Shown in pieces: positions 775 through 52,646 of a stretch of DNA of 64,000 nt. The notes under the pieces were generated by a model. The model saw only the letters and a list, made by a program, of their open reading frames with translations, was not told where the DNA came from and did no database searches. Made by a program: the position numbers and the translations under genes. The stretch comes from a virus: positions 6,965 to 70,964 of IMG/VR virus record IMGVR_UViG_3300045988_183931. The stretch is one strand, 5' to 3'. The first letter of the stretch is position 1; every line of letters starts with the position of its first letter.

Positions 775-991
775 TATAATTACGAATGGTAAAACCCTGT
801 TATTTCCGGGTGGTGTATACCCAGCACAGGTATTCAGTTCCCCAAAGCGCTGGTGCCACCTCTCACGTGACTACCAGCCAACAGAGTATTCCTGCTTCCA
901 CGACGACCATGCATCTCCACAGGCGTTAATTCCGGCTATACCGTCCGTACTCGTTTTTATTTCCTTGGCAATGTGTGCAATCATTGCACAC
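775..991 (-). ncRNA. omega-RNA-like structured RNA, copy A: 5' hairpin, scaffold, terminal imperfect hairpin, putative 12-nt guide
   Basis: Starts 16 nt after the TnpB-like stop. Contains a perfect hairpin GUGUGCAAUGAUUGCACAC (991..973) and a stem-loop GUCAC-GUGAGAG-GUGGC. The U-G wobble in that stem is only possible on the minus-strand RNA. A terminal hairpin lies at 821..788, followed by UUCGUAAUUAUA (786..775). Related copies occur at 30600..31136. Confidence 0.5.
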
Positions 992-1006: not shown

Positions 1007-2065
1007 TTAGGCAGGCTTCTGCTCGGAAGCCATGCGCTGACCTTCGGACAGCACGACCTGTGCCAGTGCCTCATCATGCTTGGCTTCCGGTGCTACGGTG
1101 GCGGTATCTACGTCCACCAGAGTGCGTCCAGCCCAGTCCGCCTTATACTTTATCATACCGGTAAGTTCAGACCAGCCGGCATCGAGGATGCTTTTAGCCT
1201 GCTCATTGCCCTCAACTAAGGGCTTAACGGCCACCTTCTCAACGGCAATAAGCTGGTTTGCGTTGACAAGTTCACGGCTGATTTTATGCCGGTAGTCATT
1301 GCGCTGATTGGCAATATGCTCATGGACGCCGGCTACCTTGCGCCGCTGCTTCTCGTAGTTGACAGAGCCCTTCTTCTTGCGGGATAGACGCCGCTGCTCA
1401 CGTGCCAACCGCTTTGCAGACTTGCTCAGATGCTTCGGGTTCTCATAGTGAACGCCGTTGCTGTCAATAGCCAACTCCTTCAGGCCGAGACTGATTCCCA
1501 CCTCGCCGTCCACAATAGGCAGCGTGTCTCGCTCTACTTTACAGCAGACAGATGCCCAGTATTTTCCGGTAGCAGACCGAGAAATAGTGACCTCGCGGGG
1601 AGACCCTTCGATGGGGCGCCCCGTCCCTCGCCTGAGCTTGTTGATTTTCTGATACTGTCCTCCAAACGGAACCTGAATGTAATCGTCCGTCACATAGATA
1701 GTACCAGCGGTCGTAAAACTCTGTGTCGGATGGGACGCGCCCTTAAATTTGGGATAACCGGGCTTCTCCCCCGCTTTAATGCGGCGGAAGAACGCCTTTC
1801 GCGCCTCAAACAAATCAATGATGGCATATCTCTCTGCCGTACAGCCGCAGTCCGCAAGCCAAGGCCAGCGCTCCCGCATCTCCGTGAGAACCTTCATACA
1901 GTCGAAGGTCGTCATCTTCTCCTGTCGGCGCTCATAGATTTTGGAGGTTTGTTCAAGGAAATGGTTCCACACAAACCGGCAGCATTTGAAAGTCTTCTCG
2001 ATGATTTCGACCTGCTCATCAGTCGGGTAAATGCGATACTTAAACGCTTGAAATGTAGTTGGCAT
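1007..2065 (-). CDS. TnpB-like (IS200/IS605 OrfB family) protein, RuvC-inactivated and C-terminally truncated (TldR-like)
   Basis: 352 aa from ATG 2065, with RBS GAAAGGACGG. The N-terminus MPTTFQAFKYRIYPT and the motifs RRLSRKKKGS, ANQRNDYRHK and SILDAGWSEL..YKADWAGR are typical of TnpB. The RuvC-I site reads GISLG (Ser where Asp is expected). RuvC-II Glu is kept (IAVEKV). The ORF ends about 30 aa after GRTLVDVD with no CxxC zinc ribbon and no RuvC-III. The 42-aa extension in the ORF track (2066..2191) lacks an RBS. Confidence 0.8.
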   Translation of the reverse strand: MPTTFQAFKYRIYPTDEQVEIIEKTFKCCRFVWNHFLEQTSKIYERRQEKMTTFDCMKVLTEMRERWPWLADCGCTAERYAIIDLFEARKAFFRRIKAGEKPGYPKFKGASHPTQSFTTAGTIYVTDDYIQVPFGGQYQKINKLRRGTGRPIEGSPREVTISRSATGKYWASVCCKVERDTLPIVDGEVGISLGLKELAIDSNGVHYENPKHLSKSAKRLAREQRRLSRKKKGSVNYEKQRRKVAGVHEHIANQRNDYRHKISRELVNANQLIAVEKVAVKPLVEGNEQAKSILDAGWSELTGMIKYKADWAGRTLVDVDTATVAPEAKHDEALAQVVLSEGQRMASEQKPA

Positions 2066-2451: not shown

Positions 2452-2528
2452 TGGAGCGGACGACGGGACTCGAACCCGCAATGACCAGCTTGGAAGGCTG
2501 GCGTCTCACCAAATTAGACGACATCCGC
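2452..2528 (-). tRNA. tRNA-Gly (anticodon UCC), CCA encoded
   Basis: Hand-folded cloverleaf. Acceptor GCGGAUG/CGUCCGC, anticodon arm CCAGC-CUUCCAA-GCUGG, T-loop GGUUCGAGUCC. Confidence 0.85.
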
Positions 2529-2564
2529 GCATATAAAAAACACCACAAAAGCACATGGTTTTAT

Positions 2565-2640
2565 TGGAGCTGATGGAGGGCCTTGAACCCCCGACCTGCG
2601 GTTTACAAATCCGCCGCTCTGCCAACTGAGCTACATCAGC
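2565..2640 (-). tRNA. tRNA-Thr (anticodon UGU), CCA encoded
   Basis: Starts GCUGAUGUAGCUCAGUUGGCAGAGC. Anticodon loop UUUGUAA, T-loop GGUUCAAGGCC, acceptor GCUGAUG/CAUCAGC. Confidence 0.8.
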
Positions 2641-2647
2641 ATAAGTC

Positions 2648-2711
2648 GTGAAGCCCCCGCACAACGAGGCTGAAAGCACTTTTCAAAAGACCTGTTACAC
2701 GGGGGCTTCAC
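2648..2711 (-). other. Long perfect hairpin between the two tRNA-Thr genes
   Basis: 12-bp perfect stem GUGAAGCCCCCG/CGGGGGCUUCAC enclosing about 40 nt. No U-tract follows. Confidence 0.5.
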
Positions 2712-2733
2712 TTGAAGGAGAATGAGTATGGAA

Positions 2734-2809
2734 TGGAGCTGACGGTGGGGGTCGAACCCACGACCTGCGCGTTACGAGTGCGCCTCTCTGCCTACTGAGC
2801 TACACCAGC
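2734..2809 (-). tRNA. tRNA-Thr (anticodon CGU), CCA encoded
   Basis: Starts GCUGGUGUAGCUCAGUAGGCAGAGA. Anticodon loop CUCGUAA, T-loop GGUUCGACCCC, acceptor GCUGGUG/CACCGUCAGC-type pairing. Confidence 0.8.
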
Positions 2810-2820
2810 ATTTTGGTGGT

Positions 2821-2874
2821 GCTGGCAGCCTCCGCTTATCGCAGGTTAATCACGTCTGCACGGAGGCCGCCAGC
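2821..2874 (-). other. Long hairpin between tRNA-Thr(CGU) and the tRNA-like element
   Basis: 14-bp stem GCUGGCGGCCUCCG/CGGAGGCUGCCAGC. Its single G-U pair exists only on the minus-strand RNA; on the plus strand it would be an A-C mismatch. Confidence 0.5.
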
Positions 2875-2916
2875 GCCGAAGAGAGTTGATGTCGGCGGGG
2901 TGGGTAGAACGCCGGC

Positions 2917-2995
2917 TGGCAATAGCGGCTGGAGTTGAACCAACATATCGTTACCTGTGAGAGAGGTACGGCATTACCAGTTATGCTACGCTATC
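2917..2995 (-). tRNA. Atypical tRNA-like gene (possible anticodon CUC, Glu), CCA encoded
   Basis: Acceptor GAUAGCG/CGCUAUU (G-U at pair 1-72), D-arm GCAU..AUGC, anticodon arm UACCU-CUCUCAC-AGGUA, T-arm GUUGG-UUCAACU-CCAGC. It has an extra nucleotide at position 26 and a 7-nt variable loop, so it needs tRNAscan-SE confirmation. Confidence 0.35.
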
Positions 2996-7901: not shown

Positions 7902-8033
7902 TTGACATTATAAATAATTGTGGTAGTATAATAGTATAATTACGAAGATATTTTTATAAGGAGACTTATCTCCGCTTCCAGTCACACCAAGTATTCAAGA
8001 CAGTTATCCCAAGACAGGGATAGCTGTCTTTTT
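7902..8033 (+). promoter_or_regulatory. Repeated promoter-leader-terminator module, copy 1
   Basis: TTGACA at 7902-7907, then TGgTAGTATAATAGTATAAT. A 46-nt core is shared with copies 2-4. Small hairpin GGAGA-CUUA-UCUCC. 12-bp terminator stem at 7999-8028 plus a U-run. The 12-mer TATAATTACGAA lies at 7935-7946. Confidence 0.8.
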
Positions 8034-8078
8034 ATATATTTTTTTACATTACAACACAATAAGAAAGGAGAAAACATA

Positions 8079-10944: not shown

Positions 10945-11077
10945 TTGACATTATAAGGAAATGTGGTAGTATAGTAGTATAATTACGAAGATATTTTTAT
11001 AAGGAGCTTTGTCTCCGTTTTCAGTCACATCATCACATTCAAGACAGTTGTTCTCTTTTGAGAACGACTGTCTTTTT
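10945..11077 (+). promoter_or_regulatory. Repeated promoter-leader-terminator module, copy 2
   Basis: TTGACA at 10945-10950. Same 46-nt core as the other copies. The 12-mer lies at 10978-10989. 13-bp terminator stem at 11043-11072 plus UUUUU. Confidence 0.8.
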
Positions 11078-14930: not shown

Positions 14931-15063
14931 TTGACATTATAAAGAATTGTGGTAGTATAGTAGTATAATTACGAAGATATTTTTATAAGGAGATTTATCT
15001 CCGTTTTCAGTCACATCATCATATTCAAGACAGTTGTTCTCATTTGGGAACGACTGTCTTTTT
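14931..15063 (+). promoter_or_regulatory. Repeated promoter-leader-terminator module, copy 3
   Basis: TTGACA at 14931-14936. Same core as the other copies. The 12-mer lies at 14964-14975. Terminator stem at 15029-15058 plus a U-run. Confidence 0.8.
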
Positions 15064-15101
15064 ATATATTCAGAACAAGTAAAAACGAAAGGAGAAAACG
15101 C

Positions 15102-20864: not shown

Positions 20865-21000
20865 TTGACAAAATAGCGAAACGTGGTAGTATAATAGTAT
20901 AATTACGAAGATATTTTTATAAGGAGTTTTATCTCCGTTTTTCAAGTCACATCATAAATTCAGACAATCACTTCCCTTTTCGGGCAGTGATTGTCTTTTT
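20865..21000 (+). promoter_or_regulatory. Repeated promoter-leader-terminator module, copy 4
   Basis: TTGACA at 20865-20870. Same core as the other copies. The 12-mer lies at 20898-20909. Terminator stem GACAAUCACU.CCC/GGG.AGUGAUUGUC at 20963-20995 plus UUUUU. Confidence 0.8.
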
Positions 21001-21068
21001 CTATATATACATTTTATTTTGGTTTCCCGTAAGTCCTTATCACAGGCTGGGAGAAAGGAGAAAACATC

Positions 21069-30165: not shown

Positions 30166-30576
30166 TCAAGTTTTACAGTAGCGGATAAAGTCCTGTGCCG
30201 AGAACGGCAGATTATCGTATCCGCAGTCCTTCAAATAACGGGAGACAACAGCAGAACTCATACTGATACGTCCATCTCCCGATGCCTTCATATGCTGTAA
30301 GCAGATGTCAGCATAACCATCTACCACATCAAGGTGTTCCAGACACCACTTCTCAACGCGGCGTTTGCGGGCCGCCAGAGACCGCTGTTCGGGATGCGGC
30401 ATCTTCTTGTAGGTGTATGCCTTTGCCGCCTTCTCGCGGCTCGTGTAGCCGAAACCTTGGGCATCATCCAATACCGCACCAGTCTTGGGCTGTATGACAA
30501 TGTAACGCGGTTCATATTCTGAGGAGAGCTCCCGCGAATATACGACTTTGAAGTAATCAGCCATACAAACAATCAT
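30166..30576 (-). CDS. Hypothetical protein
   Basis: 136 aa from ATG 30576 (MIVCMADYFKV). RBS GGTGGAAGG lies close upstream. ATG 30564 is an alternative start. Confidence 0.5.
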   Translation of the reverse strand: MIVCMADYFKVVYSRELSSEYEPRYIVIQPKTGAVLDDAQGFGYTSREKAAKAYTYKKMPHPEQRSLAARKRRVEKWCLEHLDVVDGYADICLQHMKASGDGRISMSSAVVSRYLKDCGYDNLPFSAQDFIRYCKT

Positions 30577-30599
30577 CGCCCTTCCACCGATTTTGATAC

Positions 30600-30765
30600 T
30601 CAAGCTGTTCCCCAAGGTGCTCTCACCTCGGTGCTGTACCGCCTCTCACGCGGTGTTCAGCCATGGGAAGTTCCTGCTTCTACGACGGAGTTCGTCTCCA
30701 CAGGCGTAAATTCCGGCTGTACCATCCGTACGTCTTTAAGTGTGCAATCATTGCACACTTTCCTT
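30600..30765 (-). ncRNA. omega-RNA-like element, copy C (divergent, no adjacent tnpB, no terminal hairpin)
   Basis: Same 5' hairpin GUGUGCAAUGAUUGCACAC (30758..30740) and GUACGGAUGGUACAGCCGGAAUUUACGCCUGUGGAGA. Stem-loop ACCGC-GUGAGAG-GCGGU is compensatory relative to copies A and B. UUGGGGAAC is conserved. It ends about 25 nt before the start of the 30576 gene. Confidence 0.45.
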
Positions 30766-30803
30766 GGATAATGAGCTTCCTTCGGATATAATCGTCATAC
30801 CGA

Positions 30804-30997
30804 GGTATACAACCCTGTTATTTCGGGGTGGTGTATACCCCTAACCGTGACATATCCTTTACGATAACGGGTATATGCCAGTGTGCAATGAGATGGTATA
30901 GTACCCTGTTTTTTTCTGGGTGGTGTATACCGCCACTCAAATTCAACGTGCGGCATCTTGTGGTATAGTACCCTGCTATTTCTGGGTGGTGTATACC
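30804..30997 (-). repeat. Three tandem imperfect-hairpin repeats (36-37 nt) separated by 55 and 30 nt
   Basis: Repeats at 30804-30839, 30895-30931 and 30962-30997. Consensus on the minus strand: GGUAUACACCACCC-N10-GGGU(NN)UAUACC. The same hairpin type ends copy A (788-821). Confidence 0.7.
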
Positions 30998-31136
30998 CAG
31001 CACAGGTATTCAGTCCCCCAATGCGTTGGTCGTCACCTCTCACGTGACTACCAGCCAACAGAGTATTCCTGCTTCCACGACGACCATGCATCTCCACAGG
31101 CGTTAATTCCGGTTATACCATCCGTACTTGTTTTTT
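30998..31136 (-). ncRNA. omega-RNA-like element, copy B (scaffold abutting the tRNA-Ser 3' end)
   Basis: About 90% identical to copy A over roughly 170 nt including hairpin repeat 3. It starts with an A7 run immediately after the tRNA CCA. It lacks the 5' hairpin. Confidence 0.45.
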
Positions 31137-31224
31137 TGGCGGAGAGAGTGGGAGTCGAACCCACGGATGCTTTCGCATCGCCGGTTTTCAAGACCGGTGC
31201 CTTCAACCACTCGGCCACCTCTCC
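31137..31224 (-). tRNA. tRNA-Ser (anticodon UGA), long variable arm, CCA encoded
   Basis: Starts GGAGAGGUGGCCGAGUGGUUGAAGGCA. Anticodon arm CCGGU-CUUGAAA-ACCGG, variable arm GAUGC-GAAA-GCAUC, T-loop GGUUCGACUCC. Confidence 0.85.
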
Positions 31225-31267
31225 GTATTCCCCGCCGCAGGGAGTGCCTACGGTGGGGTAATTGTTT

Positions 31268-32704
31268 TTACTCGGCTTCGCCCTCAGTGACGGCGGTAGG
31301 CTCAACACTGGGAGCAGATGCGGGAACTGCGACCTTGCCTCCGACAAAGCCGGCCAGCAGGCTCCGCAGGTCGATGCCCAAACCGTTCAGCATACCGTTG
31401 GAAACCTGAGTGGTAGAAGAAACGATGTCCTCAATCAGCTTCGTACTGTTACCCTCGCCGTACATGGTGATGGAATCCACATTAGTGAGAGGCGCGGCCA
31501 CGTTCTTGGCAATTTCGGGCAGTGCGTTCATAATCATCTCGACCACTGCGGCTTCACCGTACTTTTTCATGGCCTCAGCCTTACGGTCGATACCTTCCGC
31601 TTCGGCCAGAGCCTTGGCCTTGATAGCCTCGGCTTCTGCGGCACCGACGGCCTTGATACCTTCGGCAATCTGCTCCTGCTCGAAGCGCTTGGCCTCGGCT
31701 TCCTGCTTGCGGGCGTACAGCTCTGCTTCGGCCTTCTTTTCGGCAGCGTACTTATCGGCATCTGCCTTCTTGCGAATATCAGCATCCAACCGACGCTCCT
31801 GCAGCGTGATTTCACGCTCTGCCAGTTCTGCTTCCTTCTCGCGCTTCGCAATGTCGGCATCGGTAGATGCAATATCGAGGCTCCGGCGCTGCTTCTGTTC
31901 CTCAATCTTATAGGCAGCATCGGCAGCAGCCTTCTTGATGTCGGAGGTTTCCTTCAGCTCGGCCTGCTTCACGGCCAGTTCGGTCTTACGAATAGAAATC
32001 TGTGTATCGGATGCGACCTGAGCCTCGTTCGCCTGACGAGCCGCCTCCGCCTGAGCAATCTGGATATCGCGCTCCGCTTCGGCCTTGGCGATAGAAGCAT
32101 TTTTCTGGATTTGACTCATATTATCCTGACCCAGAGCATTGATAAGGCCCTTCTCGTCGGTCACGCGCTGGATATTACAGGAGATAATCTCGATACCCAA
32201 CGCATTCATGTCAACCTGCGCCTTTGACTGGATTTCATCACCGAATTTCTTACGGTCATTGCAGATTTCCTTGAGCGTTATAGTCCCGATAATCTCTCTC
32301 ATGTTTCCCTGCAGAGAGTCCGAAATCGCCTGCTCAAAGCCACGGGCATCAGTGATGTTCAGGAAGTTCCGCATAGCCAGCTTAATGCCCTCGTCATCTG
32401 TCCTGACACGGACCTTGGCAACGGCATCCACATCAACGCCGATGAAGTCCAGTGTGGGAATGTAGCCATCGGATTTGATGTCCACGGAAATCTGACGGAC
32501 AATTAGCTTATCGACGCGCTCCAGAAACGGAACGCGAACGCCGGCACGACCAATGAGGATTTTGGGCTTCTTGCGAAGACCGGAGATGATATACGCCATA
32601 TCGGGCGGCGCCTTGATATACCCCAAAATACAGATGATGAGGACCGCAATCACGATAATTGCGGGGACGAGAACGGCCTTGTTCCCAAAGAGCAGGTCAA
32701 ACAT
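31268..32704 (-). CDS. Flotillin-family protein (SPFH/Band 7 domain, FloT/YuaG-like)
   Basis: 478 aa. An N-terminal TM helix is followed by an SPFH core and a long Ala/Glu/Lys-rich coiled coil (AEAERDIQIAQAEAARQANEAQ...). Confidence 0.8.
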   Translation of the reverse strand: MFDLLFGNKAVLVPAIIVIAVLIICILGYIKAPPDMAYIISGLRKKPKILIGRAGVRVPFLERVDKLIVRQISVDIKSDGYIPTLDFIGVDVDAVAKVRVRTDDEGIKLAMRNFLNITDARGFEQAISDSLQGNMREIIGTITLKEICNDRKKFGDEIQSKAQVDMNALGIEIISCNIQRVTDEKGLINALGQDNMSQIQKNASIAKAEAERDIQIAQAEAARQANEAQVASDTQISIRKTELAVKQAELKETSDIKKAAADAAYKIEEQKQRRSLDIASTDADIAKREKEAELAEREITLQERRLDADIRKKADADKYAAEKKAEAELYARKQEAEAKRFEQEQIAEGIKAVGAAEAEAIKAKALAEAEGIDRKAEAMKKYGEAAVVEMIMNALPEIAKNVAAPLTNVDSITMYGEGNSTKLIEDIVSSTTQVSNGMLNGLGIDLRSLLAGFVGGKVAVPASAPSVEPTAVTEGEAE

Positions 32705-32731
32705 AGTTCTTTCTCCTTTATTCTTTCTTAT

Positions 32732-33523
32732 TTAGTTTTCAGCGGAGTATTCCGCGTCCGCCCAGTTGAGGCCGGTGCCGTAATCAATCTTGACACCGGG
32801 CTGCACATTATAGCAAAACACACAGAACTCAATGGTATCATCTTCCACAGAAAGGGCTTCCATCAAGACACCGTTCGCTACAAGGTTGTCGCCTTCAAAA
32901 ACGGGAGTCACACGATACAGAACGTGGTTGTTTGTCTCGTGAACATAATCAGCAATCTCGTTCTCAAACGGCAGCATACCAGTTACATTGAGGTAGCGAG
33001 TTCCGGTGATGAGGTTCTTGACATTGGCGTTCTCGCCTGTAAGCTGATAGCCCAGCAGATGACAACGATTGTAGAGGTACTTGCCATCCACGCAGTCGTA
33101 TTTGTTCAGGTGCCAGCCTGACGGCTTCACGGAACCGATAGACCCTCGTTCTTCCGTAGGCATCAGCTCTTGGCACACATTTGCGTAGGCAGTCCCGCAG
33201 CGTCCAAGGTCATCCAACTCGGAAAACAATTCGAACGGCTCTGTGGTCATATCAACTTCTGTAAAGAAAGGAACATTACCGTTTACAACGACATATGGCT
33301 CCCCTTCAAACGGAACAATGTCATCTAACGAAAACCAGCTCTTATAACTCTCCTCGTAGACGTCAGACGCTTCTGTATACGACGGATGGTTGTCGGGGCC
33401 AAGGTTCTCTGTGAGCTGCGGAATGAGCTCTACTCCGAGAAACACAGCAAGGGCAACAAGGAAAGCGAGGAGCCCTCGCAAGGCATTCGTGCCGTTGTTT
33501 TTCTTGTTATTATTCTTTACCAT
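32732..33523 (-). CDS. Membrane-anchored DNA/RNA non-specific endonuclease (NucA/EndA-like DNA-entry nuclease)
   Basis: 263 aa with an N-terminal TM anchor. GRCGTAYA .. YLYNRCHLLGYQLTGENAN.KNLITGTRYLN resembles the NucA/EndA family. Confidence 0.65.
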   Translation of the reverse strand: MVKNNNKKNNGTNALRGLLAFLVALAVFLGVELIPQLTENLGPDNHPSYTEASDVYEESYKSWFSLDDIVPFEGEPYVVVNGNVPFFTEVDMTTEPFELFSELDDLGRCGTAYANVCQELMPTEERGSIGSVKPSGWHLNKYDCVDGKYLYNRCHLLGYQLTGENANVKNLITGTRYLNVTGMLPFENEIADYVHETNNHVLYRVTPVFEGDNLVANGVLMEALSVEDDTIEFCVFCYNVQPGVKIDYGTGLNWADAEYSAEN

Positions 33524-50942: not shown

Positions 50943-51479
50943 GGTATTTTTGTCTCCTTTCAATGAATGTAATTTAGAGAAAACCAGCCTTCTTATATTT
51001 ATCGGTTTCTTGTTATTGCCAATTTTGAAACTGATATTACAAGGAGGCGGATTGCCCTCCATGTTTTTATGGTAGCATAATCGCGCATATTGTCAACACA
51101 TCCAAGAACACAATTTGCAAAACGAATAAAACACATTGTTCAAGGCAAAAAAAGGAACAACAACAGAAGAACAGCGACCTAAGTCGCTGTTCTTCTGTTT
51201 TAGCAAATAGCTTACGCTGCGAAATAAACATAGAATTCGTGATGACCAGCCGAGGCATTCCATCTCGCAACACAGTTTACTGTAGCAGCTCACCCCTCAA
51301 CCTCCGGAGTCCATCGTCCGTTTTCAAAATGAGAGCGTAGGAAGCCGTTCATATTTCAAACACAAAAAAGCCGAGACACCACCTCGTTTCTGAAATGGCA
51401 TCTCGGCTCTTTGAAGTTTTGAGTTTTTTAGAAAATGACATCTACTCCCTTAGTCGAGGAAAACAACATAAGTCAGGAG

Positions 51480-52646
51480 TTAGAAGTACCAGACATACAG
51501 GACATGAAGACCATCAGAATCCACTTCAACAGCGCACTTAATTCCACTCGCAAAGGGCTGCCCATCAGCGCCAATTACGCCCTCGTCCATGTGAGTAAAT
51601 CCATTAGCCTTCACCAGTGCGGCTTTCGTATCATCAATCATAGACTTCATAACATTGATAGCACTGTCCTGTGTAGGTGGGTACTTATAAAGAAGGGATT
51701 CGTTTTCAAAAATGGCGGGAGGAAAATGACTGCGGCACTCTTCGGGATGACTCAAATCAAATCCCACACTCTTACCATACTCATTGCCGGCTGCAATTAC
51801 AGCGTTCCAATCAATGTTTGTTGCGGGTGTGGGGACAGAAGGAGCGGTAGGAGTCGTGGAGCCACCGCCCGTGGAACCAGTGCTTCCGGTGTTACCGGTG
51901 TTACCAGTGTTCCCAGCGTTGCCGCCAGAAGGAGCTTCGGGGGTGGTAATCTGCTTGTTGCTCTGGTAGTATGCCCACGCCTCATCAGCGGTGCGCCCAC
52001 CGGCGGCCTTCTTGGAGCCTGCACCCCACTGACCGTCCGCGCTTACGCCGTACCAGCGCTGGAGCTCCTTCACCTGTGCGGTGGTCAGAGAACCGTTATC
52101 GTAGCTGGGCGTTGCGGGTTTCTGGGGCTCCGGCTTAACCTCAGGCTTCGTTTCAGGCTTCGTCTCAGGCTTCGTGGTGTCCTGCTTGTTGTCAGCGGGC
52201 TTCTGAGTCTCCTGCTTGGCGTCGTCCTTCTTGGTCTCGTCCTTCTTAGTGTTATCCACCTTGGCGTCCGTCTTCTGGGCGTCGGACTTGTTTTCGCCAT
52301 CGGGCTTCGCAGCATCCTCAGACTTCTGAGTATCTGCCTCGGATGCGTCGGTCTTGTTCTCCGCATCCTTTTCCTCGGACTTCTCGTAAGCCGTGATGTC
52401 CGCCGCCTTGACGACCACCACGCCCTGCGTGTCCACCACATTGCCTTCGTCGTCCAGCGTGTAGTCGGTCACGGCGTTGCCGTCCTTATCCACCAGAACC
52501 TTCTCACCGGACTCGGTGGTCTGCACGTAACAGCCGATATCCTCTCCGGTCTTGGTCTCCTCGTCAGTCTTGTTGCCGCAGGCCATCAAACTCATGGTCA
52601 TCACCAGAGCCAGCAGCAGGGCGATAAAATTCTTCATCTTTTTCAT
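51480..52646 (-). CDS. Lipoprotein with low-complexity linkers
   Basis: 388 aa from ATG 52646. Lipobox SLMACG. PETKPETKPEVKPE and GNTGNTGNTGSTGSTGG tracts. RBS GAAAGGAC. Confidence 0.7.
   Translation of the reverse strand: MKKMKNFIALLLALVMTMSLMACGNKTDEETKTGEDIGCYVQTTESGEKVLVDKDGNAVTDYTLDDEGNVVDTQGVVVVKAADITAYEKSEEKDAENKTDASEADTQKSEDAAKPDGENKSDAQKTDAKVDNTKKDETKKDDAKQETQKPADNKQDTTKPETKPETKPEVKPEPQKPATPSYDNGSLTTAQVKELQRWYGVSADGQWGAGSKKAAGGRTADEAWAYYQSNKQITTPEAPSGGNAGNTGNTGNTGSTGSTGGGSTTPTAPSVPTPATNIDWNAVIAAGNEYGKSVGFDLSHPEECRSHFPPAIFENESLLYKYPPTQDSAINVMKSMIDDTKAALVKANGFTHMDEGVIGADGQPFASGIKCAVEVDSDGLHVLYVWYF

Follow-up and report, generated by a model that had tools for sequence, protein, structure and literature searches.

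Two scaffold RNAs, A and B, probably head small CRISPR-like guide arrays that serve an adjacent, apparently nuclease-dead TnpB-like protein (dTnpB) and would silence a rival integrated element, with a third, diverged scaffold, C, persisting as a repeat-less leader or relic. These assignments come from comparing the 64-kb stretch of phage DNA analysed here (the window) with related phages and with the integrated elements that their spacers match.

Scaffolds A, B and C and the arrays behind A and B

The original prediction described three related minus-strand elements, and an nhmmer search of the whole window with a profile of 72 scaffold sequences returned exactly three copies, all on the minus strand and all in the expected places, with matches at 951..838 (A), 31128..31014 (B) and 30731..30610 (C) (Table 1). 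A and B are 90.3% identical over 176 alignment columns, in agreement with the roughly 90% over about 170 nt claimed for them, and C, described as much more diverged, is 64–67% identical to A or B. The palindromic hairpin GTGTGCAATGATTGCACAC, which C was said to keep from A, indeed precedes both, as it does many scaffolds of related phages, and is absent before B. The stems quoted for the GUGAGAG loop were also read correctly: GUCAC/GUGGC in A, GUCAC/GUGAC in B and ACCGC/GCGGU in C.

Table 1. Positions of the features discussed, in window coordinates
Feature	Position	Strand	Basis
Scaffold A, omega-RNA-derived by comparison, 3′ end UUGGGGAAC	837..951	-	nhmmer E 2.6e-36 and alignments
Scaffold B, array head	31013..31128	-	nhmmer E 1.1e-34; 90% identity to A
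Scaffold C, diverged copy without repeat	30607..30731	-	nhmmer E 1.1e-21
Additions in scaffold C: extra hairpin CCGAGGUGAGAGCACCUUGG and altered anti-repeat segment	within 30607..30731	-	
Palindromic hairpin 5′ of scaffold A	973..991	-	
Palindromic hairpin 5′ of scaffold C	30740..30758	-	
tRNA-Ser(UGA), immediately 5′ of scaffold B	31137..31224	-	ARAGORN and Rfam
Linker (31012..30999) and repeat 1 (30998..30962) behind B	30962..31012	-	
Spacer S1, ACAAGATGCCGCACGTTGAATTTGAGTGG	30933..30961	-	island match
Repeat 2 of the B array	30895..30932	-	
Irregular interval in the B array	30841..30894	-	compared with L085
Repeat 3, terminal, of the B array	30804..30840	-	
Linker TGAATACCTGTGCT and single, slightly truncated repeat (822..788) after A	788..836	-	repeat model hit 822..791
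5′ UTR and 136-aa gene (MADYFKVVYS...), first of a three-gene operon	30166..30606	-	UTR continues scaffold C
dTnpB gene, 352 aa	1007..2065	-	Pfam and ISDra2 TnpB alignment
Site matching a sister phage's spacer	51086..51114	+	G before it

The compensatory base changes on which the prediction leaned persist once homologues are added. Across 72 distinct scaffold copies 97.3% of base-pair cells are paired, and double-sided changes occur at 10 pairs and in 51 cells, compared with 4.5 and 6.9 in shuffles; none of 500 shuffles reached the observed double-change value, and slid controls gave 4–6 pairs. In the GUGAGAG stem, each of the four pairs covaries. Frequent G-U pairs are compatible with a minus-strand transcript only, which agrees with the earlier argument from U-G pairing. 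Sequence comparison and covariation support the view that the three scaffolds are homologous, act as functional RNAs and are transcribed codirectionally with the tnpB-like gene. ROOL, GOLLD and IS605-orfB had been named as known families to be considered, and no such model matched: at the gathering cut-off Rfam returned tRNAs only for the whole window, and for the related locus L010, including its intact omega-RNA, no match beyond tRNAs; at E ≤ 10 the interval 30400..31300 gave nothing relevant.

Scaffold B follows the tRNA-Ser gene as had been noticed; it starts 9 nt past the CCA end, and this tRNA-scaffold junction is repeated in more than 10 related loci. B is not the stand-alone or orphan copy that was first proposed, since it heads a repeat-spacer array whose first spacer, S1, has an external target matching at 28–29 of 29 positions. 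Between B and C lie three copies of a 37-nt structured repeat that the original prediction had overlooked, and a fourth copy follows A. In the B array, the irregular interval between the second and third repeats consists of a short, 15-nt spacer-like stretch (ATCTCATTGCACACT) and a degenerate repeat remnant (GGCATATACC...), and it also contains 12 nt that match the palindromic hairpin. No spacer follows the single repeat behind A, where sister phages have 2–6 repeats at the same position; the A locus is a collapsed array. The window's own arrays are minimal, with a single good spacer between them, that of B, and the B array is short as well as partly irregular. Reading the stretch directly after UUGGGGAAC as a guide gave no target in the window for A/B or C, and comparison shows that this stretch is a conserved linker in A and B and homologous 5′ UTR in C.

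A survey of about 25 related IMG/VR phage contigs places these minimal arrays in a larger set. The 382 repeat matches fall into 124 arrays, of which 108 follow a scaffold directly, and the arrays are dispersed over the genome, with at least 10 per phage. As in CRISPR arrays, the direct repeats (1–7 per array) are of constant length, the spacers are unique and near-constant in length (29 nt is the commonest, in 118 of 258), and spacer turnover is polarised: in a qualitative comparison of L053, L065, L010, L025 and L079, distal spacers are common to sister phages and scaffold-proximal ones differ. RNAalifold predicts an 8-bp helix between ACUCUGUU in the scaffold and AACAGGGU in the repeat (93% paired); it varies almost solely on one side, and because it is nearly invariant, covariation is no test of this anti-repeat pairing. 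No adaptation genes (cas1/cas2/cas4) were found among the few neighbouring ORFs scanned, and many V-U and TranC loci likewise lack them.

Scaffold C has neither repeat nor guide, so that leader and relic are options for C only; beyond its GGGGAAC lies homologous 5′ UTR sequence rather than an exchanged guide, and its anti-repeat segment is no longer complementary to the repeats. The operon downstream gave no informative family or structure match, and its 136-aa first gene no family match. Within the C lineage alone, double changes occur at 3 pairs in 5 variants, including a switch from GACG/CGTC to GACA/TGTC and, within the extra hairpin, one from U-A to C-G; such changes speak for ongoing selection to keep the fold. 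C probably serves as a structured leader or is a leftover protein-binding site rather than a guide. The more specific suggestion that it acts in cis, as a dTnpB-binding scaffold in the 5′ UTR that would couple expression or stability of the operon to dTnpB occupancy, we consider possible though rather unlikely. By analogy, a truncated mini-scaffold lies directly 5′ of the dTnpB start codon in L003 and L004, with GGGGAAC about 30 nt from the start codon there as in C; besides the compensatory changes in its fold, C is linked to the same gene family throughout and directly follows tRNA-Ser in several phages. However, in some sister phages the same gene stands behind a C that is 5′-truncated (L085) or 3′-truncated (L086/L087), or behind none (L090), and possible pairing of C with the downstream ribosome-binding site showed no clean covariation on inspection.

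The TnpB-like protein and the probable ancestry of the repeat

The original prediction called the partner protein dead, and by its sequence dTnpB is indeed nuclease-dead: the RuvC-I aspartate D191 is replaced by serine (GISLGL), and the sequence stops short of RuvC-III (D361 of ISDra2 TnpB) and the zinc finger, leaving no intact D-E-D triad. Its family is clear from Pfam matches to HTH_OrfB_IS605 and OrfB_IS605 (E 4e-18 and 7e-25), with the TNB domain present as a sub-threshold fragment only, and from an alignment to residues 7–326 of ISDra2 TnpB (8h1j; E 4e-49). The top PADLOC matches are Cas12f and V-U4 (Cas12u4) models, and there is no Cas12m model among the 13 PADLOC models listed for this protein; UnCas12m4a matched the intact TnpB of related loci weakly (9e-9) and dTnpB not at all. 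Likeness to LaTranC (9jfo/9jfq) is confined to the RuvC region (E 7e-12). The dTnpB clade is narrow, with clusters at 99%, 87% and 79% identity holding 370, 147 and 1 members, and its nearest relatives outside the clade are intact TnpBs at 51–53% identity. It is the sole TnpB/Cas12-like ORF in the 64-kb window, where no second tnpB copy was found.

The gene is full-length and syntenic in 26 loci, with a scaffold directly 3′ of it in 26 of 26. It is under strong purifying selection (dN/dS 0.075 at dS 1.1), and the nucleotide sequence of the ORF's final 130 nt is hyperconserved. The putative partnership of dTnpB with the arrays is drawn from adjacency and co-occurrence.

An intact 372-aa TnpB, with DED triad and zinc finger, is found in 5–6 related loci and offers a view of where scaffold and repeat came from. 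A relation to omega-RNA had been proposed, and the 5′ half of the scaffold proves homologous to the omega-RNA of the intact TnpB in sister phages, as seen in L010; the 3′ end of that omega-RNA (GGTTGAATATCC, directly before the guide) resembles the linker and the 3′ end of the repeat. Downstream of scaffold A lies a repeat or array, not flanking DNA as in OMEGA elements. Most likely, judging from these alignments, the 37-nt repeat represents the 3′, guide-proximal module of an ancestral omega-RNA.

Spacer targets and a model of silencing

Twenty-two spacers, six of them perfectly, match one family of integrated elements of about 6 kb, represented by six island variants that adjoin ychF and encode XRE, HUH-SF3 Rep, FtsK, Xis and integrase proteins. 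S1 of the window matches island variant L096 at 28 of 29 positions and L081 at 27 of 29, and the S1 variant of sister phages matches L081 at 29 of 29; the S1 protospacer is preceded by G and has no flanking repeats. The base before the protospacer is G in 22 of 22 cases, a flanking motif absent from the repeat, which ends in C. Most protospacers lie inside ORFs of the mobile element, and 21 of the 22 are on the coding strand. Shuffled 29-mers reached at most 69% identity to the islands. About 75% of spacers had no match. In a BLAST search of 75 spacers against INPHARED phages, the sole match was another array (MT835962); PLSDB plasmids yielded no match, and exact 20-mers of S1 and of a second spacer occurred in IMG/VR in arrays only. 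Matches to L080 (an Acetobacteraceae MAG) and the metagenome L082 cover just the first 20 nt of S1 and were set aside, about one such match being expected by chance. Two spacers that seemed to derive from opposite strands of one target proved to be an artefact of a near-palindromic repeat matched on both strands, and the shared target predicted for two overlapping opposite-strand spacers (GGAGACGCCATGAATTCCGT) was absent from IMG/VR.

The island is possibly a rival, phage-parasitic or satellite-like element. It has a promoter-leader-terminator cassette and a portion of a lipoprotein gene in common with the phage, and this copying of the phage promoter-leader cassette suggests a satellite, though a search of IMG/VR for the island Rep found nothing and so gave no sign of packaging. 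The one-base TAM, far below the 5-nt TAMs of ISDra2-like TnpBs, could reflect a bias in spacer acquisition rather than recognition by the effector, and the coding-strand bias could stem from single-stranded intermediates formed as the target replicates by rolling circle or is transferred.

Under the silencing model with which we opened, A and B would provide the 5′ handle of guide RNAs used by the adjacent dTnpB, each consisting of an omega-RNA-derived scaffold followed in cis by linker and 37-nt repeat, and the addition of repeat-spacer units behind scaffold and repeat would have produced the CRISPR-like mini-arrays. B would be transcribed behind tRNA-Ser and its 5′ end set by tRNA 3′ processing, because a RuvC-dead protein cannot process its own RNA. 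B would then supply one clear 29-nt guide, S1, and A would be a scaffold with one repeat and no spacer. The dTnpB-guide complex would bind the template strand of the island's rep-ftsK operon and block transcription instead of cutting, thereby suppressing a rival, possibly phage-parasitic, element during infection; C would be a diverged paralogue fixed in the 5′ UTR of the next operon. A dCas12a roadblock is effective when the guide pairs with the template strand, and the orientation here is the same. From the dead active site and the 21:1 coding-strand bias together we infer that the complex binds DNA under RNA guidance and represses without cutting. A more ambitious version, which we advance tentatively and hold to be somewhat doubtful, is that this gut-phage family carries a self-contained, nuclease-free, adaptive-looking system that combines a dead TnpB-sized effector, at least 10 dispersed scaffold-in-cis mini-arrays, some of them tRNA-matured, a one-base motif and spacers renewed without recognisable Cas1-Cas2, and that silences the replication-transfer operon of a suspected satellite.

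It is improbable, in our view, that the arrays instead serve a nuclease-competent effector and direct DNA cleavage, leaving the dead TnpB some other role. Candidates for such an effector would be the intact TnpB of sister phages, a phage protein outside the window, which covers 64 kb of a roughly 190-kb genome, or a host Cas12 or TranC. The intact TnpB has in its favour an omega-RNA that shares the scaffold's 5′ half, but the protein is absent from the window and from most loci, and the 3′ half of its omega-RNA differs and has no repeat. The constant position of a scaffold behind the dead gene and the purifying selection on that gene also speak against this reading, and a 21:1 coding-strand bias is not expected of a double-strand DNA nuclease.

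The earlier alternative, that these copies are orphan omega-RNAs or decayed IS200/IS605 right ends with no present function, fits neither A nor B and is, for B and C together, very improbable. As decayed IS ends, A and B would sit poorly with their syntenic positions, with spacer gain and loss and with the selection on their partner protein; B, moreover, heads an array with a matching spacer, and its tRNA-Ser junction is conserved and its stems covary. Decay has a case for C, given its missing repeat and guide, its truncation or absence in the sister phages named above and its lost anti-repeat complementarity. Set against this are the compensatory double changes within the C lineage and positions that are syntenic, not scattered; nor was any TnpA or left end noticed. 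Both decay and a cis-acting leader, as first proposed, are thus readings for C.

That the guides mainly regulate genes of the phage itself or of its siblings, in a TldR-like programme or for superinfection exclusion, is highly improbable: one sister phage's spacer does fall on a −35 region (18/18 from its first base in the window, 27/29 in phages L075 and L077), overlapping a minus-strand TTGACA box just upstream of a 1928-aa ORF, and TGTCAA is mildly enriched in spacers (3 observed vs 0.5 expected, p about 0.014; other promoter motifs not significant), but this is 1 of 108 spacers to match the window or about 0.5 Mb of related phage loci, against 22 on the island family, and the window's own guides match nothing in the window.

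Implications and comparison with known systems

If the silencing model is correct, the system would be a sequence-resolved case with the CRISPR repeat visible as a duplicated omega-RNA 3′ module, and it would join two recently described branches of TnpB domestication, the dead single-guide repressors (TldR) and the array-using intermediates (TranC). In the more ambitious version it would further be a living intermediate in which CRISPR arrays grow out of omega-RNA, and would give a phage a natural CRISPRi weapon to turn on its parasite. Abundant human-gut phages may fight small integrative elements by RNA-guided silencing, in parallel to ICP1 and PLE and without DNA cutting. How spacers are acquired without Cas1-Cas2 is a question that it raises. 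A putative programmable DNA binder of 352 aa, maybe with a one-base requirement, would be attractive for compact CRISPRi and epigenome tools, and the natural tRNA-guide fusion resembles the synthetic tRNA-gRNA arrays of genome engineering.

Vibrio phage ICP1 reportedly carries a complete, nuclease-active type I-F CRISPR-Cas system with adaptation genes, aimed at the PLE satellite. Viral mini-arrays target related viruses and borrow host repeats and host Cas proteins (PMC11656645). The present arrays resemble these cases in that phage spacers are directed against a small integrated host element or sibling viruses, whereas the repeat here is tied to the phage's own dead TnpB scaffold. The RpoE-linked arrays of inactivated TnpB/Cas12f proteins likewise pair a TnpB-family protein that has lost its activity with guide units in multiple copies, which presumably arose when omega-RNA segments were duplicated (PMC10691335; PMC13472631). 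In those, however, duplication takes in the entire omega-RNA, repeats are longer than 60 bp, and the protein and a sigma factor drive transcription, whereas here the 37-nt 3′ module alone has been multiplied, with one scaffold in front.

Cas12m (type V-M) and Cas12c share with our system arrays and an effector that does not cut its target DNA, and they too are borne on mobile elements and interfere with rival mobile elements by blocking transcription (PMC11656645; PMC13565253); dTnpB differs in its lineage, its small size (352 aa), its cis-fused scaffold and its carrier, a large phage rather than a plasmid. TranCs pair a TnpB-like effector with a CRISPR array and a tracr-like RNA from a split omega-RNA, have no cas1/cas2 nearby, repeats of 32–38 bp, short arrays and a compact PAM, and some occur in Caudoviricetes and in Oscillospiraceae/Ruminococcaceae (10.64898/2026.03.27.714800; PMC13565253). 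The TranCs tested cut DNA, with a PAM found for clades 3, 9, 11 and 20 (10.64898/2026.03.27.714800; PMC13565253), whereas the effector here is dead by sequence and aligns far better with ISDra2 TnpB than with LaTranC, and each of the dispersed arrays has its own scaffold in cis.

TldRs are like dTnpB in being TnpB-sized, with a degraded RuvC and a shortened C-terminus, under selection and adjacent to an omega-RNA-derived guide RNA; some are phage-borne, and their presumed action is a steric block of RNA polymerase. They rely on a single, unchanging short guide aimed at a host promoter (fliC, oppA, csrA-linked), and the papers describing them mention no arrays (10.1101/2023.11.30.569447; 10.64898/2026.09.22.753285). 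Here, by contrast, there are many scaffold-headed arrays of up to 7 repeats, 29-nt spacers that turn over, targets mostly inside mobile-element genes and a one-base flanking motif. Most likely, then, the system combines features of TldR with those of TranC and Cas12m.

Scaffold copies and the arrays behind them

With a profile of 72 homologues, the window yields exactly three copies of the omega-RNA-like scaffold, in agreement with the original prediction of three related elements, whose quoted stem sequences are also correct: A and B are 90.3% identical, and C is ~65% identical to either. The Rfam search proposed with that prediction returned no family for the scaffolds: neither the whole window, searched at gathering scores, nor the scaffold region, searched at E ≤ 10, gave one. 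Scaffold A lies beside the gene for dTnpB, a nuclease-dead TnpB-like protein, ~30 kb in window coordinates from the region that holds tRNA-Ser, B and C. Read from tRNA-Ser on the minus strand, the order there is scaffold B, an interval of ~270 nt, a palindromic hairpin (GTGTGCAATGATTGCACAC, which precedes both A and C), scaffold C and the downstream gene. Within the interval, a 37-nt structured repeat, GGGTATACACCACCC.GAAA.A.CAGGGT..TATACC, occurs three times; it had been overlooked, and B is therefore not the stand-alone copy it was taken for; a fourth repeat directly follows scaffold A. The short spacer-like stretch after repeat 2, ATCTCATTGCACACT, includes a perfect 12-nt match to the palindromic hairpin; coincidence, a scar left by recombination or a short guide directed at the phage itself could each account for it.

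Features of the window and of the targeted island (L081)
Feature	Location	Strand	Remark
TnpB-like ORF, 352 aa	2065..1007	-	followed by palindromic hairpin and scaffold A
tRNA genes Gly-UCC, Thr-UGU, Thr-CGU, Glu-CUC	2452-2995	-	immediately 5′ of dTnpB gene
Scaffold A	951..838	-	72-homologue profile match
Flotillin/SPFH-domain protein and secreted-type non-specific DNA/RNA endonuclease	31268-33523	-	just 5′ of tRNA-Ser
tRNA-Ser	31224..31137	-	5′ of scaffold B
Scaffold B	31128..31014	-	72-homologue profile match
12-nt hairpin match	30880-30891		after repeat 2; hairpin partner 30748-30759
Scaffold C	30731..30610	-	72-homologue profile match
Gene downstream of scaffold C	start 30576	-	last in B-to-C order
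Promoter-leader-terminator cassettes	7921-8043, 10958-11028, 14950-15068, 20884-21005	+	sequence conservation
Cassette, island copy	L081 3522-3650		5′ of rep operon
Giant ORF, 1928 aa	45276-51062	-	almost without family match
Giant ORF, 3671 aa	52976-63991	-	

The invariant scaffold core, CCGGAATTWACGCCTGTGGAGA, occurs 128 times, as 87 distinct sequences, in the window and 74 IMG/VR loci (derived from ~25 phage contigs of up to 192 kb), often in many copies on one phage contig. With a repeat profile we collected 382 repeats into 124 arrays of 1–7 repeats, 108 of them directly behind a scaffold; among 258 spacers, 29 nt is the most frequent length (118). What precedes the scaffold differs between loci: the CCA end of tRNA-Ser is directly 5′ in more than 10, and elsewhere the neighbor is the dTnpB stop codon with the hairpin, a hairpin resembling a terminator, or the end of some unrelated gene. 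Orthologous arrays of sister phages (L079 included) have distal spacers in common and different scaffold-proximal ones, which, as read from the sequences, is the pattern of polarised spacer turnover.

Element C retains the P1 helices and the GUGAGAG stem-loop, with the stem fully exchanged and one hairpin added; its anti-repeat segment is altered, and no repeat lies behind it. It is intact in several sister phages (directly after tRNA-Ser in some), truncated 5′ in L085 and 3′ in L086 and L087, and missing from L090, whose last repeat runs directly into the same 5′ UTR. We rejected an exchanged guide after GGGGAAC in C, as this stretch is a homologous UTR across sister phages. Because it is UTR and not guide, and because the C lineage shows double compensatory changes at three pairs, C is probably a structured leader or a residual protein-binding site, and may be either functional or a relic.

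RNA structure and a possible origin of the repeat

For covariation we used 72 distinct sequences spanning scaffold and first repeat, in which the RNAalifold structure is 97.3% paired. Changes on both sides occur at 10 pairs, in 51 cells, versus 4.5 and 6.9 in column shuffles (0 of 500 reach the observed level), and slid controls give 4–6 such pairs. Covariation extends to all four pairs of the GUGAGAG stem, so what was first noted among A, B and C holds with more homologues; the remaining helices hardly vary and cannot inform on this point. G-U pairs compatible only with a minus-strand transcript are abundant, as the U-G pair in A had implied. The original observation of three scaffolds, their stems and minus-strand covariation stands as a whole. 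Its interpretation holds in part: the minus-strand scaffold RNAs survive, and the isolation of B is given up.

RNAalifold also pairs scaffold ACUCUGUU with repeat AACAGGGU, with variation almost only on one side, and this predicted pairing looks like an anti-repeat:repeat helix. In sister phages, the omega-RNA of an intact TnpB has its 5′ half in common with the scaffold and ends ..GGTTGAATATCC before the guide. Since the scaffold linker GGGGAACTGAATATGCC and the 3′ end of the repeat, CAGGGTTGTATACC, both resemble this guide-proximal end, the 37-nt repeat looks like a duplicated guide-proximal module of omega-RNA. Such duplication is the proposed origin of type V arrays (PMC10691335), and the same origin has been proposed for TranC (PMC13565253).

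dTnpB and its intact relatives

The only TnpB/Cas12-like ORF in the window, dTnpB has HTH_OrfB and OrfB_IS605 domains and a sub-threshold stub of the TNB domain. It aligns with ISDra2 TnpB at E 4e-49; in ISDra2 TnpB numbering, S replaces D191 in RuvC-I, E278 is retained, and the C-terminus stops before D361 and the zinc finger. The protein is full-length in 26 loci (87–99% identity), with a dN/dS of 0.075 at dS ~1.1. Its clade is narrow, consisting of three clusters at 99%, 87% and 79% identity (370, 147 and 1 member sequences), and the closest proteins outside it are intact TnpBs at 51–53%. An intact 372-aa TnpB with DED triad, zinc finger and its own omega-RNA (L010 2442-3800; also L021, L027, L044 and L053) is limited to 5–6 loci; in some sister phages its place is on the far side of the tRNA cluster, and the window has no copy. 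It is probably a live IS605-family element from the source lineage of dTnpB.

The last ~130 nt of the dTnpB ORF (window 1007-1140, minus strand) are ~95% identical between lineages at the nucleotide level, versus ~78% for the rest of the gene, and the 36 C-terminal residues are invariant. The conservation points to an additional, overlapping constraint at the level of RNA or DNA; the guide RNA may extend 5′ into this stretch. In L003 (112-196) and L004 (1168-1252), though not in the window, a truncated mini-scaffold (P1 region and UUUUGGGGAC only) lies directly 5′ of the dTnpB gene, ending ~30 nt before the ATG; it may be an autoregulatory leader.

Island targets and a proposed silencing mechanism

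The window itself contains no match to any of its candidate guides. In a metagenome scan designed to leave out array copies, we used S1, a 29-nt spacer of the B array (30933..30961, minus strand): a protospacer in L081, lacking flanking repeats, matches a sister-phage variant of S1 at 29/29 and the window's S1 at 27/29. The contig L081 is bacterial chromosomal DNA (sufC/sufBD ... ychF) with a ~6 kb island. Along this island come genes for a lipoprotein and an XRE regulator, the small ORF in which the protospacer lies, and genes for a 340-aa protein, an FtsK-like translocase and a tyrosine integrase. By eye, HUH-type motifs (FAVLNNP, HIHMV, YIEK) and a Walker A motif are present in the 340-aa protein. 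Five more variants, retrieved via Rep homologues, keep this gene order and add a Tn916-type Xis; wherever the flanking sequence continues past the integrase, it is ychF. A SprT-like protein and small ORFs are additional cargo of the islands in L102 (2762-3415) and L103 (756-1409); they separate the XRE gene from the rep operon, in a region that varies between islands and could accommodate anti-phage functions.

Across the six variants, 22 spacers from many arrays and phages find matches, six of them perfect, and the window's S1 reaches 28/29; shuffled 29-mers reach at most 69% identity. A G directly precedes the protospacer in 22/22, whereas the repeat's last base is C. All but one of the 22 protospacers lie on the coding strand of the orf-rep-ftsK-xis-int operon.

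At the level of sequence, the anatomy (scaffold-headed arrays and an adjoining conserved dTnpB) and the island targets are well supported, and from them we infer a silencing mechanism. dTnpB would load scaffold/array RNAs, the first repeat-spacer unit acting in cis with its own scaffold and later units pairing in trans with free scaffolds such as the spacer-less A; the 5′ end of B would be made by tRNA processing. Binding to the template strand would then block transcription of the element's replication and transfer genes, and dCas12a roadblocks are effective in this orientation. Alternatively, the guides may be directed at single-stranded rolling-circle intermediates, or the targets may be cleaved by another effector.

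Phage and island also have sequence in common. Some 290–490 nt of the island lipoprotein gene (L081 2084-3046) are shared with phage at 81–87% identity; window positions 51836..52234 are 87% identical to its 3′ part, and the stretch likewise occurs in L075, L077 and L078, which indicates gene exchange between phage and targeted element. The window has at least four copies of a promoter-leader-terminator cassette, and the island has one. The cassette starts with TTGACA, which 17 nt separate from an extended -10 box (TGGTAGTATA.TAGTATAAT); then come a small hairpin, GGAGAT..ATCTCC, and a second hairpin that resembles an intrinsic terminator. It looks like a phage promoter with an attenuating leader, copied by the island. 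One sister-phage spacer matches the -35 region 5′ of the 1928-aa ORF, at 27/29 in two other sister phages and at 18/18 from its first base in the window (51086..51103). The window site (51086-51114, plus strand) has G at its 5′ side and overlaps a TTGACA box facing that ORF; it may reflect sibling-phage targeting or self-regulation.

In the searchable literature, the TranC Cell paper and the full V-U list excepted, we found no account of phages that combine a dead ISDra2-like TnpB with dispersed, scaffold-headed arrays; an earlier description may exist. We regard the system as a variant of known RNA-guided systems, and a more interesting one than first proposed. It resembles TldR in its protein and TranC in its RNA architecture, but the single fixed guide of TldR is absent, as is the active nuclease of TranC and Cas12. 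With Cas12m/Cas12c and type IV it would share interference between mobile elements, a mode deduced here from sequence, although by sequence membership, with no Cas12m among the 13 PADLOC models listed, the phage effector falls outside Cas12m.
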